The notes under the pieces were generated by a model. The model saw nothing but the letters and a program-made list of their open reading frames with translations. It did no database searches and was not told the DNA's origin. A stretch of 64,000 nucleotides of DNA from a virus. Lineage: Duplodnaviria > Caudoviricetes. Where the stretch lies: IMG/VR virus record IMGVR_UViG_3300042881_004206; one strand, 5' to 3'. Positions 36,065 through 43,340 of the stretch are shown piece after piece. Every line of letters begins with the position of its first letter. Position 1 is the stretch's first letter. The position numbers and the translations under genes were made by a program.

Positions 36065-36937
36065 ATGAGCTCATTTGCAAACCTCAAACGCCAATCTGGC
36101 AACCTCGATAAGCTGACCAAAGCAATCGAAGCCCTTAACTCCTCAGAGGGCACAGAGAGTCGAGATAATTTCTGGCGCCCCGAAGTCGATAAAGCCGGTA
36201 ACGGTATGGCGACCATTCGTTTTCTTCCTGCATCACCTGGCGATGGTGATGATTCTCTACCTTGGGTCAAGGTATTCTCTCATGGTTTCCAGGGTCCTGG
36301 TGGCTGGTTGATTGATAACTGCCTGACAACCAAGAGCCAACAATGTCCTGTGTGTGAACACAATAACAAGTTGTGGAACTCAGGTATTGAAGCCAACAAG
36401 GAAATCGTCCGTAAACAAAAGCGTAAGCTAAACTACATTGCTAATGTGTATATTGTTTCGGATCCTAAGCATCCCGAGAACGAAGGGCAAGTTAAACTGT
36501 TCAAGTTCGGTAAGAAAATCTTTGATAAGATTACTGAAGCAATGAATCCTGCTTTCGAAGATGAAACTGCAATTAATCCTTTTGATTTCTGGAAAGGTGC
36601 AAACTTCAAGCTGAAGATTCGTAAGGTAGAAGGTTATCAGAATTACGATAAGTCTGAATTCGAATCGCCTTCCGCATTGTCTAATGATGATGACGAACTT
36701 GAAAAAATCTGGAAGCAAGAACATACTCTCAAGGATCTTGTTGCTGACAAGGAATTCAAGTCTTATGATGAACTAAAGACTCGTCTTGATAAAGTTCTTG
36801 GTCTGAATGGTGAAACTGCACCAGTTAAGACTACTGTTGAACAACTGAAGTCTGCTCCAAAGAAAGATGTTGAACCTCCTTGGGAAGATTCATCTGATGA
36901 AGATATGGCTTACTTTAGTAAGTTGGCAGAAGAATAA
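36065..36937 (+). CDS. 32: Single-stranded DNA-binding protein gp32
   Basis: FWRPEVDKAGNG.A.IRFLP, HGFQGPGGW, CPVCE, GANFKLKIRKV.GY.NYD; acidic tail. Confidence 0.97.
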   Translation: MSSFANLKRQSGNLDKLTKAIEALNSSEGTESRDNFWRPEVDKAGNGMATIRFLPASPGDGDDSLPWVKVFSHGFQGPGGWLIDNCLTTKSQQCPVCEHNNKLWNSGIEANKEIVRKQKRKLNYIANVYIVSDPKHPENEGQVKLFKFGKKIFDKITEAMNPAFEDETAINPFDFWKGANFKLKIRKVEGYQNYDKSEFESPSALSNDDDELEKIWKQEHTLKDLVADKEFKSYDELKTRLDKVLGLNGETAPVKTTVEQLKSAPKKDVEPPWEDSSDEDMAYFSKLAEE

Positions 36938-36961
36938 GGCCGTGTGAAGGCCGTGCCTAGA

Positions 36962-36983
36962 CCCCGCTTCGGCGGGGTTTTTT
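36962..36983 (+). terminator. Intrinsic terminator, cUUCGg hairpin at strand convergence
   Basis: CCCCGC-TTCG-GCGGGG followed by T6. Confidence 0.92.
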
Positions 36984-36988
36984 ATTGG

Positions 36989-38290
36989 TTAAACTACTCT
37001 TGTTGAATAGTAAATCATTCTTTGAAATGTTTCTTCTGGATTTCGAACAGATATTTTATCCAGTTTCGAAATGATCATTGATTGGTTCTTTTGTGTCTGT
37101 GAAACATTTGTCAAATTATTAACAGGAGCGGCCGCTGGTGCCTTTGGAAGATTTAATGTTTGATTTTCTTTGACAACACTTTCAAGTTGTTGCGGTCCCA
37201 TTCTTGGCATGATTGGTGGTTCTGCTGGTGTAGTGGGTAATGCCGGCACATTAATAGGTCTGAGCATACCTTTTGGATTTGCAGTTAACCATTCTTGCAA
37301 TTCTTTACGAGTTTTTCCGGTTTCTTGTACAAGTTCTTGGTCGTTGAGGTTGCTACCTATTAATTCTCTTACATAACTTGCCGACATATCTCTTACCGCA
37401 CGTCTGCGAAGTTGTTCACCACCTTGTTTTTCACTCTTTGCTTGTCCTCTCAGTTGTAGTGCATATGCATCATTATCAAACTTTGGATTGAAAGGATCAG
37501 CTTCTATTTGTTTTCTTTTTTCACCCGTAAAAGATACGAATCCCAATAATGCTGCGGCAAAAGCTGCAGGACCAGCTGCAGTACCAACTAACGCCTTTAA
37601 AGGTAGTGCAGACAATATATTTTTTGCGAATCCACCCAATAGACTCACAAATGGTTTTAAACCCATCAACCAATCTAAAGACTTTTCTATCATCACTTGA
37701 ACTAAACCTTTGAACGATTCGAACATTTTTCTGATCGTTTCTAAAATTGAACCGAAAAGTGAACCATCATTTTCTTTTGGTTGTTTATTGATAGTGCCTG
37801 TACCGACTCCTGTAATCGCTTTGATTAATTCTTTATGTCTTTTTTCTTTTTCTAAGTCTTCTTCCTCACGGCGATTGTTTAATAGTTCATATCTATTTTT
37901 TTCATTTTCATGATTAGACTTCAAGAAATTAAAAATATCAGTCAATATTCCCAGAGTAGAACCACCATCACCTCTAGGCAAAGCGCCAATTCTGTCGGCA
38001 GTTGTATTTCTACCAATAGGTCTTGCAGTGCCAGCAAAATACTGAATGTCTCTTTGACTTCTACCTAACATTCTACCCAATAACGCCGGCGCAAGATTTG
38101 ATCCACCAGTTAAAAATTTTGCAATATTTAAAGGATCAAATTTTTCTTTTATTCTAGTCAATCTCGCAACAGACTTTTGACTAATTCCTTTTGTAAATGC
38201 ACCAGAATAAGATTCGCCAGCAACAAGATTAGCTGCTATAACATCAGCAAGCGATCTGTTTCTTATATTTCTTGCTATTTGATAGTCCAT
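36989..38290 (-). CDS. Tape-measure/baseplate-hub-like protein (gp29-like position)
   Basis: Helical, with a hydrophobic central segment; downstream of gp26/gp51; family not firmly recognised. Confidence 0.55.
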   Translation of the reverse strand: MDYQIARNIRNRSLADVIAANLVAGESYSGAFTKGISQKSVARLTRIKEKFDPLNIAKFLTGGSNLAPALLGRMLGRSQRDIQYFAGTARPIGRNTTADRIGALPRGDGGSTLGILTDIFNFLKSNHENEKNRYELLNNRREEEDLEKEKRHKELIKAITGVGTGTINKQPKENDGSLFGSILETIRKMFESFKGLVQVMIEKSLDWLMGLKPFVSLLGGFAKNILSALPLKALVGTAAGPAAFAAALLGFVSFTGEKRKQIEADPFNPKFDNDAYALQLRGQAKSEKQGGEQLRRRAVRDMSASYVRELIGSNLNDQELVQETGKTRKELQEWLTANPKGMLRPINVPALPTTPAEPPIMPRMGPQQLESVVKENQTLNLPKAPAAAPVNNLTNVSQTQKNQSMIISKLDKISVRNPEETFQRMIYYSTRVV

Positions 38291-39651
38291 TATTGTCTCG
38301 ATTTTCTAATTAGTGGTGGTGTGATTTCTTCTACCTTTTTGGTATCTATCTGTGGCGATTGTGATGTTTGTGCAACATTGTTTATGTTATTGATTATGTT
38401 GCCGGCCGTTTCATTCATTTCGCGCTTCAAGTTTTTATTTTCTTTTGACAAAGAATCTACAGGTAGATTTGGTGCATTTATTCTCGGTTCTTGTATTGGT
38501 ATATTCTTTAAACCATTTTTAATAGATTCGGCATTTTCTTTGGCCCTACCTTTTACCTGTGTGGCATAAACGGAAGAAAGTATATTTTTTGATGCTTCAT
38601 CCAACTGAAGATTTTCTAACTGCTTCATTAAAATTGGCCAATTTTTATACCAATTGACGCCCATGTTATATGTCATATCAACAAGAGCTGTTTGTGCTTG
38701 AAGATTCAATTTATCAAAATTTGGAATTTTTCTTGCATTTTCCTCATATTTCGGATAATCCTGTTTTAAGAGTTCATATGCATCTTCTTTAGAAATAACT
38801 GTGTCTTTTCCTCTTTCACCTAACACAGGAATTTTTTTATTGCCTGCCATGATGTAACCATTTTTTATTTCATTTTCCGTAATTTGATGACCATAACCAA
38901 CAGAATATAATTTTCTAGGATCACCTTTCTTCGGATCTAGATAAGATTTACCCGCAAAGCCCTCTTTGGATGATATTCTTGCAAGTGCTTCTTTTTGTAA
39001 TGAAGCTGCAGTCACGGCTGTTCCGACCGCAATAGATGGAACTATTGGTGGTTTAGATACTGCAACTGGTGGTTTTGTTGGTGTTGCCGGTGGTGCAGGC
39101 GGTTTAGTCGGTGCAACCGGTGGTTTTGGTGCCGCCACAGGTGGTGCCGGTGCGGCCGGCGGTCTAGTTGCAACAGGAGGCTTGGTTGTTGTCACCGGTG
39201 GGGTTGTGGTGGTAACAGGAGGCTTGGTTGTTGTCACCGGTGGGGTTGTGGTGGTAACAGGAGGCTTGGTTGCAACAGGCGGTAATGTGGTAACTTCCGT
39301 AGGTTTTTTTAATTCTTTTGGAGGTTTTTCGCCCTTAGATTCTTTTGGTATTTCTTTGATTACTTTTTCAGGCTTAACTTTTTTCAGTTTTTGGCCAGTC
39401 AGAGCTTTAATTAGTTCGCGATTTCTTTTGTTTTCTCTTAAACCATCCAATTTTAAACTAAGATTTTCTATTTCACTCCTGACTTTTCTTTCTTCTTCCA
39501 GTCTGACCATAATTTTAAAAATTTCACCTAGAGCTGTTCTGGATGTTTTAAACTGAACACCAGTGGATTCAGCATCAACTGAACCTAAACTGAAAAGTGA
39601 AGACACCTTGTTCTTTAACTTTTCCGAAATACTTAGTTTTTCTTTTTCCAT
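38290..39651 (-). CDS. Tail-associated lysozyme: coiled coil, Pro/Thr linker, GH24 (T4-lysozyme-like) domain
   Basis: KEGF...YLD...SVGYGHQI (E-x8-D pattern) and ALVDMTYNMG. Confidence 0.82.
   Translation of the reverse strand: MEKEKLSISEKLKNKVSSLFSLGSVDAESTGVQFKTSRTALGEIFKIMVRLEEERKVRSEIENLSLKLDGLRENKRNRELIKALTGQKLKKVKPEKVIKEIPKESKGEKPPKELKKPTEVTTLPPVATKPPVTTTTPPVTTTKPPVTTTTPPVTTTKPPVATRPPAAPAPPVAAPKPPVAPTKPPAPPATPTKPPVAVSKPPIVPSIAVGTAVTAASLQKEALARISSKEGFAGKSYLDPKKGDPRKLYSVGYGHQITENEIKNGYIMAGNKKIPVLGERGKDTVISKEDAYELLKQDYPKYEENARKIPNFDKLNLQAQTALVDMTYNMGVNWYKNWPILMKQLENLQLDEASKNILSSVYATQVKGRAKENAESIKNGLKNIPIQEPRINAPNLPVDSLSKENKNLKREMNETAGNIINNINNVAQTSQSPQIDTKKVEEITPPLIRKSRQ
39172..39272. repeat. 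42-bp tandem repeat, about 2.4 copies, encoding the PVTTTTPPVTTTKP linker
   Basis: Units start at 39172, 39214 and 39256. Confidence 0.9.
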
Positions 39652-39840
39652 TTATGATCGTCTTAGTTCTTTTAATTTTTGATTTTCTTCCTCAATATAT
39701 TGTATCAACATGGAAATATAAATGTCTCTTTCCCACGGCATCATATTCTCAAGTTCCGTAAGGCTGTATTTGTGGTGTTGCACCAAAGAGAAATTAGTTT
39801 TGTAGTAATTTCTCAAATCATCATGACGAAATGTTAACCG
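39652..39840 (-). CDS. 51: gp51-like baseplate hub assembly protein; no in-frame ATG before the conserved N-part, probably the -1 frameshift extension of gp26
   Basis: Translated by hand: RLTFRHDDLRNYYKTNFSLVQHHKYSLTELENMMPWERDIYISMLIQYIEEENQKLKELRRS. Confidence 0.85.
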   Translation of the reverse strand, partial: RLTFRHDDLRNYYKTNFSLVQHHKYSLTELENMMPWERDIYISMLIQYIEEENQKLKELRRS

Positions 39841-40559
39841 AAAAAACTTTCTAGGCCTTCCACATCAATTTTATGTTCGAAACCACATTTGCCACATTTC
39901 ATTTCAATTTTATCTCTTAACTTTGGTAGATTGCCAAAAAATTCTTCTACTTTCTCAAACTGTTGTTGATTCATCGACTCTATAAATTCAATCAATTCTT
40001 TTTCTGTAGATTCTTTTGCATAGTAAAATTGTTCACCATCATAAATGTACTCAATACTGTGTGCAATCATACTGAATGTCATTTCACCGGCATTTTCATA
40101 TTTTAATGAGTCTTTAATTTTACCAAATTCTGGATATTTAAACTTGACAGTCAACTTTTCATTCAATTGAATTTCTGGTTTAATCTCAGAATTAATTTCA
40201 ACTTTTAAATTTAAAAGATTTAATTGATTGTCCATGATGTTATTACATTCTTTTCCTTCAACAAAGTTGTTGCATCTATATTTTGATTCAACAACTTCAC
40301 CAACAGACTTTGCCCTCAGGTGAATGAAAAGATATTCTACATCGATTACGGGCAGTTCATCAACCTTTATATTTTTTGTCAGAATACAGTTTACTAAAAC
40401 ATCTTTGATTGCTCTATGAACTTCTTCCGTTTCATTAGATTCCATTGCCATCAAAAGATTTCTTTGTTCTTTAACAAGAAATGGTCTATATTTAATCTTT
40501 TTCTTGGAAACTGGTAATGTCAATTCATAGGTTGGTGTATCAATTTTGGGCAAAGCCAT
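39834..40559 (-). CDS. 26: Baseplate hub assembly protein gp26
   Basis: MALPKIDTPTYEL.LP...IKYRPFLVKE...D.EYLF..LRAKSVGE...EGLESFF. Confidence 0.92.
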   Translation of the reverse strand: MALPKIDTPTYELTLPVSKKKIKYRPFLVKEQRNLLMAMESNETEEVHRAIKDVLVNCILTKNIKVDELPVIDVEYLFIHLRAKSVGEVVESKYRCNNFVEGKECNNIMDNQLNLLNLKVEINSEIKPEIQLNEKLTVKFKYPEFGKIKDSLKYENAGEMTFSMIAHSIEYIYDGEQFYYAKESTEKELIEFIESMNQQQFEKVEEFFGNLPKLRDKIEMKCGKCGFEHKIDVEGLESFFG

Positions 40560-40569
40560 AATAACTCCT

Positions 40570-41220
40570 TCATGTAAAATTCAATAAAATATTATTTGTT
40601 AGTCCTCTATAATTTTTCCAATATGTGTAGGCAAAAGTCACAGTTATCTTATGATAACCATCGTTACCCCAATCCAGATCCATTTGATTGATCGAAATTG
40701 GAAAAGCTTCATACAATTCTACAGTATATGAAGGAAAATCATTTACATCATACTGATTGATTGTTAATGTTGTTTGATATTGATCTCTGTATCTAAAATT
40801 ATTTGTGTCTGAAGGATTGATATATTCGATCCAATCGTCAAATAAGAATTTTTCTTCCATCTTATCTGAGACAATGAAAGTTAAGTCAATATCATTATAT
40901 GTTGTAAGATATGGGTGCTTTTCAATGGGACCATATATTCTCTGATCAGCTGTCGCTAAATTTCGGCCAGGTAAGTTTGCATTTTCGCATCGAAAGATTA
41001 AACTTCTAATTGTCGAATATCTGGTAAGTCTTTCTGCGGTGACCGTAAAAGATTGTTCAGTACCAGATACTAATGATTCGGCCGCACCAGATGGTGTTTC
41101 ACTCGTATTAAACAAGTTGCCATTCAAAAATCCGCTAGGAATAGGCACCATGACATTAAATCTACTTGTTCTTGCCAAGTCGGTTCTAAAACTGGATTTG
41201 AAGTCATTTAAACTAGGCAT
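40570..41220 (-). CDS. Tail-tube-fold baseplate protein (gp54/gp19-like)
   Basis: LARTSRF.V, CENANLPG, I.LTFI, I.QYD, YTVELYEAFP..I, V.F.Y. Confidence 0.8.
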   Translation of the reverse strand: MPSLNDFKSSFRTDLARTSRFNVMVPIPSGFLNGNLFNTSETPSGAAESLVSGTEQSFTVTAERLTRYSTIRSLIFRCENANLPGRNLATADQRIYGPIEKHPYLTTYNDIDLTFIVSDKMEEKFLFDDWIEYINPSDTNNFRYRDQYQTTLTINQYDVNDFPSYTVELYEAFPISINQMDLDWGNDGYHKITVTFAYTYWKNYRGLTNNILLNFT

Positions 41221-41838: not shown

Positions 41839-42271
41839 TCAATCCTAAATGTTCTTCAGTTATTACTTTGAATTCCCAACCCCGGTCTAAACAATACTCA
41901 TTGGCAGCTTTCCATTTTGCCTGATTCACGCCCCATGTTGCAACTTCTTGAATGTACTGTTTTGTGACCCTTTTCTTCTTTTCTGGTGGCTGAGCTTGTT
42001 TTTTTGGTTTTACTTCCAACATCATTGTTTTCAAAATACCATCTCTAGTTCGAAATTTAACTAAAAAGTCAGGGAAATAACGATGCCACTTACCATCAAC
42101 TGGTGATTTATAAGGAATGGTCATTTCTTCAGATGCCCAAGATATAATTTGTGGATTTTTGTCGAGCCAATTCATCACTCGACATTCCCAACTCGAGCGA
42201 TATACAATATTTTTATGATCCCCAATGTATTTTTGAGGATTTGTTGGTCGAAATAAACCTGAATAAGCCAT
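41834..42271 (-). CDS. 4: Head completion nuclease gp4
   Basis: MAYSG.F.P.NP.KY.GD...IVYRSSWE...WASEE..IPY...HRYFPDF...EVKPKKQ. Confidence 0.95.
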   Translation of the reverse strand: MAYSGLFRPTNPQKYIGDHKNIVYRSSWECRVMNWLDKNPQIISWASEEMTIPYKSPVDGKWHRYFPDFLVKFRTRDGILKTMMLEVKPKKQAQPPEKKKRVTKQYIQEVATWGVNQAKWKAANEYCLDRGWEFKVITEEHLGLK

Positions 42272-42278
42272 ATAAATA
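42271..42278 (+). promoter_or_regulatory. T4 late promoter TATAAATA
   Basis: Perfect consensus at the gp4/gp48 divergence. Confidence 0.85.
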
Positions 42279-42305: not shown

Positions 42306-43340
42306 ATGGCCATAACAATAACACTACCAAGTTCTCTCGGAGGAATTATTGGACCAACTGAAACAATCGGTGGTCCTCTATCTTCCTTATACGAATCTCA
42401 ATATGATGTTGCAAATTTGCATTATCCGAGAAACTTAGGTGCAACAAATAGAGGTCACTCCGTTCTTTTTACCATTCAGAAGGTAAAAGAAGTAACCTTG
42501 GAAGAAGGTGCTCAAGGAATTACGGACTTATTTAATAATCAGTATATAACTGGATATGATCCAATAAGTGGTCTTCCGACGACTTATGATAAAATATTTG
42601 ACACAAACTTTTCTCTTTCTGACACACTAAGTGGTTTTACGAATTTTTTTGGTGGTAATACAACCACATCCTTAAATTCTTCACAAATCACTAGTTTCAT
42701 TAGAAATACTGGAACATCGATTGGCACCAAACTACAGAGTGCTCTGAAACAGAGAACTGAACTGGCTGGCCAGATTGAATTATACATGCCCGAAAACTTG
42801 AATTTTAGTTATGATGCACAATACAATTCACTTTCTTTAATTGAGGCTGCAGCTTCAATACCTCTGGTTGGTAAACTGGCTTCAGGTATAAATTCAATAA
42901 TGCAGAATAGTGCTGCAAAATTGGTACTAAACAGAGCTGGATATGTCTTTAACCCACAGCAACAGTTGTTATTTGAGGGTATTGATTTCAGAACATACCA
43001 AATGTCGTTTACTTTTTCTCCTGTTTCGCGAGAAGAAGCAAACATGGTGAAAAAAATTATTAGAGAATTTAGAAGATATGCTGCACCATCAATTGTAAGA
43101 GAAGCTGCAGGTATGTTTTTTGTTCCTCCTGCAATATTTGAGTTACAGTTTAAATATAATGGTCAAGAAAATAAAAATTTAAACAAAATTGAAAAGAGTG
43201 TAATTACAAATATTGAAGTAAATTATGCACCAAACGGCTGGGCCGCACACAATGATGGCGCACCAGTTCAAACTACAATGACACTATCATTCAAAGAAAT
43301 CGCACTCATTGACAGAGCTAAGATCGAAGAAGGTTTCTAA
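42306..43340 (+). CDS. 48: Baseplate tail-tube cap gp48
   Basis: I.LYMP, FNP..QLLFEG.DFRT....F.F.P....EA..V..II..F, Q..MTLSF.E. Confidence 0.88.
   Translation: MAITITLPSSLGGIIGPTETIGGPLSSLYESQYDVANLHYPRNLGATNRGHSVLFTIQKVKEVTLEEGAQGITDLFNNQYITGYDPISGLPTTYDKIFDTNFSLSDTLSGFTNFFGGNTTTSLNSSQITSFIRNTGTSIGTKLQSALKQRTELAGQIELYMPENLNFSYDAQYNSLSLIEAAASIPLVGKLASGINSIMQNSAAKLVLNRAGYVFNPQQQLLFEGIDFRTYQMSFTFSPVSREEANMVKKIIREFRRYAAPSIVREAAGMFFVPPAIFELQFKYNGQENKNLNKIEKSVITNIEVNYAPNGWAAHNDGAPVQTTMTLSFKEIALIDRAKIEEGF

Follow-up and report, generated by a model that had tools for sequence, protein, structure and literature searches.

The 64,000-nucleotide (nt) stretch of DNA analyzed here (hereafter the window) is taken from the T4-like phage record IMGVR_UViG_3300042881_004206, and on its minus strand a gene for a protein of the gp26 family is followed at once by a reading frame for a gp51-like tail, which lies in the −1 frame and lacks a start codon of its own (Table 1). 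The gp26 gene ends ...GAA AGT TTT TTC GGT TAA and thus contains the heptamer T_TTT_TTC, just as a first-pass annotation of the letters had described it; that annotation had proposed that a programmed −1 frameshift at this site joins gp26 to gp51 and yields a pair of tail assembly chaperones (TACs) equivalent to gpG and gpGT of phage lambda, and its coordinates and codons for the junction agree with our direct reading. The −1 frame does not open exactly at the heptamer, as had been claimed, because it is open from 39864, six codons (18 nt) further 5′, after a TGA at 39867..39865; none of these six codons is ATG, GTG, or TTG. From the CGG at 39840 the frame runs for 62 residues, as had been said, including the gp51 motif HDDLRNYYKTNFSLVQHHKYSLTELENMMPWERDIY, and reaches its stop codon at 39654..39652.

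Table 1. Features of the gp26-gp51 locus and its flanking genes in the window (nt, nucleotides; aa, amino acids; TAC, tail assembly chaperone; ORF, open reading frame).
Feature	Position	Strand	Basis
Shine-Dalgarno AAGGAG of gp26, 5 nt 5′ of its ATG	40565..40570	-	direct reading
Short form (TAC-N, gp26-like), 241 aa, 0 frame	40559..39834	-	Pfam PF12322 T4_baseplate, phrog_150
Slippery heptamer T_TTT_TTC, X_XXY_YYZ phase of the gp26 frame	39846..39840	-	direct reading (plus strand GAAAAAA 39840-39846)
0-frame stop TAA, one codon past the heptamer	39836..39834	-	direct reading
-1 frame extension (gp51 tail ORF), 62 codons + stop, without own start	39840..39652	-	translation, phrog_634
Predicted long form (TAC-NC, gp51-like), 240 + 62 = 302 aa	40559..39652	-	composite built from both frames
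Upstream neighbor, tail-tube-fold protein (gp54/gp19-like), 216 aa	41220..40570	-	phrog_45 'tail tube', E 8e-40
Downstream neighbor 1, 453-aa protein with Pro/Thr-rich linker and GH24 lysozyme domain	39651..38290	-	Pfam Phage_lysozyme, E 1.4e-10
Downstream neighbor 2, 433-aa protein with Gly/Ala-rich hydrophobic stretch	38290..36989	-	no Pfam, PHROG, or NCBIfam match

The short form matches Pfam PF12322 (T4_baseplate) over residues 8-240 (E 5e-62; 209.8 bits, cut-off 24.5) and fills positions 5-232 of the PHROG profile phrog_150, “baseplate hub” (E 3e-65). The tail matches phrog_634, “baseplate hub assembly catalyst” (E 4e-28), as well as positions 235-276 of phrog_150, colinear with the gp26 match; since one profile spans both pieces, gp26 and the tail must form a single protein in some members of the family. 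The two T4 proteins, which are baseplate hub assembly proteins or chaperones, are divided in the same place: gp26 (208 aa) consists of PF12322 alone, gp51 (249 aa) has PF12322 at 1-201 followed by a C-terminal tail, and a profile of the −1 peptides aligns with the C-termini of T4 gp51 (204-240) and Aes012 gp51 (203-249, E 1e-12). Judged from these sequence matches, the unshifted product has the gp26 architecture and the predicted shifted product of 302 aa has that of gp51, with the slip site falling exactly at the domain boundary. T4 gp26 and gp51 share PF12322 membership with the proteins of the window phage, and the long form shares the C-terminal motif YSL..(I/L)..M(I/L/M)P.ER, although identity between the window gp26 and that of T4 is only ~25%.

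The number of PF12322 genes is in keeping with this. The whole phage record (156.6 kb, ~92% complete) holds one, as do KVP40, Melnitz, Astolliot, phiN3, S-TIM4, and two complete IMG/VR relatives, whereas two are found in T4, Aes012, and Konradin. In T4 the short and long forms are encoded by divergent, separate genes without recoding; this arrangement is not found in the window phage, and with a single PF12322 gene a long form would be obtainable only by recoding.

A heptamer of this kind is not significant by itself, as there are 14 in-frame T_TTT_TTY sites in the long open reading frames (ORFs) of the window, and any evidence beyond chance must therefore come from its conservation rather than from its presence. 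We examined a close set of 80 IMG/VR relatives with 62-69% gp26 identity (63 of them unique for the count of Phe-Phe codons), 178 assessable loci from further scans that took gp26 from cyanophage S-H68, KVP40, Pseudomonas phage Astolliot, and Sinorhizobium phage phiN3 as seeds, and a pooled set of 211 unique junctions from IMG/VR relatives, in which gp26 identity extends down to ~27%. The tail lies in the −1 frame in all 80 close relatives and at all 178 loci of the wider scans (258/258 assessable). Among the close relatives ...RTTTTTTCG is invariant (80/80) while the adjoining third positions vary, and the heptamer plus the G that follows it makes up the longest invariant run in an alignment from −150 to +200. 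In the wider scans T_TTT_TTY occurs within the last 60 nt of gp26 at every locus (178/178), and in the pooled set it is accompanied by a −1-frame tail at 211 of 211 junctions, as TTTTTTC in 188 and TTTTTTT in 23. The comparison of junctions that the first-pass annotation had suggested thus bears out its reading, all the more as no conserved start was found in the window's clade (see below).

Codon usage at the site tells the same story. The slip-site Phe-Phe is encoded as T_TTT_TTC in 63/63 unique close relatives, whereas control Phe-Phe dipeptides in the same genes are encoded as TTC-TTT (36), TTT-TTT (20), TTC-TTC (5), or TTT-TTC (3). Throughout the 211 junctions the codon immediately 5′ of Phe-Phe is AGT, AAT, GAT, TCT, GCT, ACT, or CAT, which specify six amino acids and always end in T; elsewhere in gp26 the same residues have T-ending codons in 33-81% of cases. 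Likewise, the first Phe codon of the slip site is TTT in 211/211, as compared to 69% elsewhere. A wobble base that is fixed as T across six different amino acids points to selection at the level of nucleotides and not of protein. Beyond the heptamer, the 0 frame adds between 0 and 8 unconserved residues after Phe-Phe, its stop codon being 0-1 codons 3′ of the heptamer in 201 of the 211 junctions. The −1 peptide, FF-(R/L)-(I/V)-(G/A)-(L/M)-x-H-(D/M)-x-L-x-N-(Y/H)-(Y/F), is conserved from its first post-slip codon, and variation in this region is concentrated at third positions of the −1 frame.

The same data bear on whether the split frame is an artefact or a product of decay, that is, a homopolymer error of sequencing or assembly, or a recent frameshift mutation that divided an ancestral gp51-like long gene. 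Homopolymer runs are indeed error-prone, and single-ORF long forms do exist in T4-type phages, but an identical arrangement is found in >250 independent contigs and isolate genomes from varied studies and technologies, both frames are under purifying selection, and the site is spanned in two independent lake metagenome runs by contigs that show neither a difference nor an indel. These bridging contigs rule out a homopolymer sequencing error, and artefact or decay in general seems to us so improbable as to be negligible.

A number of isolate genomes show variations at the same position. In Aeromonas phage CC2 (2171-2360 of the stretch examined) the sequence AGT TTT TTC GCA TAA precedes a −1 ORF of 62 codons; this ORF gives E 9e-7 against the tail profile and falls in an unannotated gap of the RefSeq record. 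The slip site of Rhizobium phage RHph_I9 is T_TTT_TTG. After the PF12322 gene of Klebsiella phage K751 (2190-2400 of the stretch examined) there is GAG ATT TTC ATT TAA, the tail ORF being unannotated, and the corresponding sequence in Vibrio phage K444 (2200-2405 of the stretch examined) is CTT TTT GCG TAA TGATG.

Several observations weigh against a ribosomal frameshift at this locus. Phe-Phe is itself a conserved protein motif, so the conservation of TTT TTY must in part be at the protein level. In K751, a member of the Ackermannviridae, and in K444 the tail is in the −1 frame without any canonical X_XXY_YYZ heptamer. No conserved downstream hairpin or pseudoknot was found in the window's clade by RNAalifold (57 sequences), single-sequence folding, or per-clade ungapped alifold: the alifold consensus was −0.77 kcal/mol, the single-sequence z-score was −0.88, and the mean minimum free energy was weaker than that of shuffled sequences. 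The first-pass annotation, which had seen no strong stimulatory hairpin by eye, was right on this point. Contigs from small shares of two metatranscriptome runs cover only 39682-39712 and 40070-40235, both outside the junction, and as contigs rather than reads these data are uninformative on transcription or slippage. Tape-measure identity could not be demonstrated for either of the two downstream proteins (453 and 433 aa), and a position upstream of the gene for the tape measure protein is one of the marks by which TAC genes are recognized. Finally, the tail ORF has an ATG at codon 3 or 6 in every member of the S-H68 cyanophage clade, and an ATG overlaps the gp26 stop codon in KVP40, phiN3, and Ps15; separate or coupled initiation of the tail ORF is thus possible in these lineages.

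One could accordingly envision that recoding plays no part and that “gp51” (~54 aa) is a small gene in its own right, with translation of the tail ORF beginning at the in-frame TTG at 39816, at a GTG, or at the internal pair of ATG codons, or else by reinitiation past the gp26 stop. This is the form in which most GenBank records enter it, the window does possess the TTG, and some clades, as just described, have an ATG soon after or overlapping the stop. However, the TTG of the window is TTA, CTG, or TTG in its relatives and so is unconserved, and in the window's clade 50 of 59 unique sequences have no ATG, GTG, or TTG among the first 12 post-slip codons, although these codons are conserved as protein. 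The window tail ORF has no ATG 5′ of its MMPW and no GGAG-type Shine-Dalgarno sequence before the in-frame TTG or the GTG, as the first-pass annotation had noted; gp26, with its AAGGAG, shows that genes of this phage are able to carry a strong one. Moreover, annotated starts lie at differing, non-homologous positions among phages and cut off conserved residues, and a separate gene would leave unexplained the invariant heptamer, the T wobble base, the −1 frame, and the lack of a gp51-length protein in genomes with one PF12322 gene. We therefore think it quite improbable that the tail is made in this way in the window phage. The further claim that separate annotation of gp51 is an artefact holds for the window's clade; given the ATG of the S-H68 clade, it cannot yet be generalized beyond it.

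In the S-H68-like clade, many sequences have a short palindrome, such as GTCCATATGGAC or GATCCATATGGATC, that spans the tail ATG (...H-M-D-L-E-N-Y...) and whose outer pair seems to co-vary between G-C and A-T. In this clade the mean minimum free energy is −13.0 kcal/mol as compared to −9.4 kcal/mol for shuffles, yet there is no alifold consensus.

Alternatively, the same fusion protein could arise through transcriptional slippage, with RNA polymerase adding an extra U in the U6 run in a fraction of mRNAs. The run is homopolymeric (T6 in the window and T6-T8 among relatives), the always-T wobble base that precedes it lengthens the run and would be helpful here too, and the RNA structure typical of ribosomal −1 sites is absent. 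A run of six is short, however; productive transcriptional slippage in bacteria usually needs runs of ~8-9 or more. Selection for slippage by the polymerase should favor longer runs, whereas the heptamer ends in C at 188 of the 211 junctions and in T at just 23, and the X_XXY_YYZ phase is always exact, a constraint that polymerase slippage would not impose (although the phase is held by the coding of Phe-Phe as well). Further, the site of RHph_I9 ends in G like that of P2, whose slip site in E/E+E′ is T_TTT_TTG, and there is no length variation in the DNA contigs. On balance we consider transcriptional slippage an unlikely source of the long form.

We are thus highly confident that the long form arises through a −1 recoding event, and we think it likely, if somewhat less certain, that the event is a ribosomal −1 slip yielding a short and a long tail assembly chaperone. 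Most ribosomes would read gp26 to its TAA and release the 241-aa short form. A minority, with UUU of U_UUU_UUC (39846..39840) in the P site and UUC in the A site, would move back by one base, both tRNAs re-pairing with UUU UUU, and would then read 62 codons in the −1 frame to give the 302-aa long form ...GLESFF-RLTFRHDDL..., with the “gp51” peptide as its C-terminal tail. In T4 the counterpart of the short form would be gp26 and that of the long form gp51, the products of two separate paralogous genes. The slip itself, its efficiency, and the partners of both forms are matters that we infer: by analogy with lambda gpG/gpGT, the shared domain would serve to hold the tape measure or hub proteins and the extra tail would let the long form bring in a tube or hub component, and a fixed low rate of slippage would set the ratio of the short form to the long.

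As to what might stimulate the slip, a stop codon near a slip site is classically known to stimulate shifting (a “shifty stop”), and the 0-frame stop may act as such here. Because no conserved RNA structure was found, the stop one codon 3′ of the heptamer would be the most likely pausing element. One could extend this and propose that the slip occurs without any RNA structure, that the 0-frame stop is the conserved stimulator, that the ratio of the two forms reflects competition between termination and slippage, and that K751 and K444 use a different, undescribed route; we put this forward only tentatively and rather doubt it in its full form.

The predicted fold of the short form agrees with a chaperone role. 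An AlphaFold model of the short form (mean predicted local distance difference test score, pLDDT, 88; predicted template modeling score, pTM, 0.81) was used for fold searches, and an exhaustive structural scan matched model residues 1-95 to 3fgx (Z 7.9, 86 residues aligned), 3klu/YqbN (Z 7.4, 86), and 2ob9 (Z 7.1, 85), with alignments that span most of the target chain and the next match at Z 4.8. Values of Z below 8 are moderate, but the top three matches agree with one another: 3fgx and 3klu would, by their families, be tail assembly chaperones, and 2ob9, the HK97 tail assembly chaperone, was also the top Foldseek match in the PDB (probability 0.91, E 0.4). The N-terminal domain of the gp26-like protein is thus modeled with a TAC-like fold. 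A search of afdb_swissprot with the short-form model was uninformative, and one of BFVD matched only members of its own family. The G/GT-type pairing of gp26 with a gp26-gp51 fusion, as put forward in the first-pass annotation, is therefore supported by frame, heptamer, gene count, and fold. We also observed two Cys pairs in the short form (C..C at residues ~95-105 and CGKCG at 222-225), which together make a zinc-ribbon-like element beside the slip site and are kept mostly, although not universally, across the family alignment.

Conserved −1 frameshifts in tail assembly chaperone genes were reportedly described by Xu, Hendrix and Duda in 2004, and that of P2 E/E+E′ is said to have been reported by Christie et al. 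in 2002; both papers are cited in PMC12859696. Like lambda gpG/gpGT and P2 E/E+E′, the locus pairs overlapping ORFs: the first has an X_XXY_YYZ heptamer close to its end, and the second is a start-less −1 extension. The locus adjoins a tail-tube-like gene, its T-run, a canonical heptamer for tandem slippage, resembles that of P2, and its N-terminal fold matches those of the HK97 TAC and YqbN. It differs from them in that sequence similarity between the window protein and the Pfam Phage_TAC families is undetectable, that the protein is roughly double the length and carries an additional domain, rich in beta structure and containing Cys, and that no recognizable tape measure gene lies downstream of it. 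In addition, T4 genetics links the gp26/gp51 family to hub assembly, not to a demonstrated interaction with the tape measure.

Judging by its title and by the papers that cite it, the 2022 Virology study of Vladimirov, Gautam and Davidson reportedly identified the TAC genes of T4-like phages. The window phage is an uncultured freshwater (lake) phage absent from isolate collections; according to the citing papers, the locus agrees with those TACs in gene family, in the pairing of a short TAC-N with a long TAC-NC, and in a poly-T signal at the TAC-N end. Poly-T sequences are described as known −1 signals in the TAC-N genes of T4-like phages (PMC12846349), and some T4-like phages are described as having a two-gene alternative, in which a short TAC gene is accompanied by a longer, fused one (PMC10885494); both papers cite Vladimirov, Gautam and Davidson (Virology 2022;566:9-15). 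The novelty implied in the first-pass annotation was thus overstated, since TAC identity, poly-T slip signal, and two-gene alternative had all been published in 2022 according to these two sources (PMC10885494, PMC12846349). The locus is very probably a clear new example of the published T4-like TAC frameshift, and its mechanism is not new.

Public records tend to present the same arrangement differently. KVP40.0327 and the cyanophage genes named “gp51 baseplate hub assembly catalyst” are the same tail ORF, directly 3′ of gp26, entered as an independent small gene; the KVP40 record notes that KVP40.0327 resembles 40 aa at the C-terminal end of T4 gp51. In the GenBank records that we examined for gp26/gp51 loci, ribosomal slippage is nowhere annotated, while the Konradin record labels gp26, gp51, and gp28 “tape measure protein assembly chaperone”. 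It is very probable that the small ORFs called “gp51” or “baseplate hub assembly catalyst” in cyanophages, KVP40-like phages, and numerous uncultured T4-like phages encode the C-terminal portion of a long chaperone made by frameshifting, and we suggest that they be annotated with ribosomal slippage; in Aeromonas CC2 and Klebsiella K751 annotation of the tail ORF is missing altogether. The rule that two chaperone forms come from one gene would then hold across the T4 superfamily with T4 as a derived, two-gene exception, which would make it natural to compare a ratio fixed by the efficiency of slippage with one fixed by two promoters or genes.

The genes around the locus fit the expected setting in part. 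The pair had been placed between a tail-tube-fold gene and two tape-measure-like genes. The former assignment stands: beyond its phrog_45 match, the 216-aa upstream protein scores slightly below the cut-offs of Pfam Phage_TTP_2 and Phage_T4_gp19, and its equivalents in CC2 and RHph_I9 are annotated as gp54 or tube initiator. The latter is not borne out, as the first downstream protein has a GH24 lysozyme domain and the second, of 433 aa, shows no detectable similarity to T4 gp29 or PF25671. BLASTP against gp29 found no similarity, a 26-sequence profile gave a probability of 1.3% against gp29 by hhalign, a profile search had no match among PDB sequences, Pfam searches of all 26 members lent no support to a tape measure, and PF25671 has no match in the whole phage record. 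The 433-aa protein has no Pfam, PHROG, or NCBIfam match, the single lead for it being a weak one (an Atlas embedding score of 0.91 to a PF25671 cluster). The ATG of the 453-aa gene directly abuts the stop of the tail ORF (TAA ATG), and the records of cyanophage S-TIM4 and phage Ps15 list its equivalents as endolysin-domain proteins. The 453-aa protein also has a long series of Pro/Thr-rich tandem units (PPVTTTT/PPVATKP-like) at residues ~120-200, past a coiled-coil-like N-terminus and before the GH24 domain.

Neither the T4 late promoter TATAAATA nor any other promoter or terminator was found above chance between gp26 and the tail ORF. The sole exact match to TATAAATA in the window is at 42271-42278 (+), where it sits 28 nt 5′ of a gp48-like tail tube cap gene (42306-43340); with 6.3 matches expected by chance, the motif is depleted rather than enriched in this phage. 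At the other end of the region, a gene for a gp32-like single-stranded DNA binding protein (36065-36980 region, +) is followed by a clean GC-rich hairpin and T-run terminator at 36959-36980; this gene converges on the block of minus-strand tail genes where that block ends.

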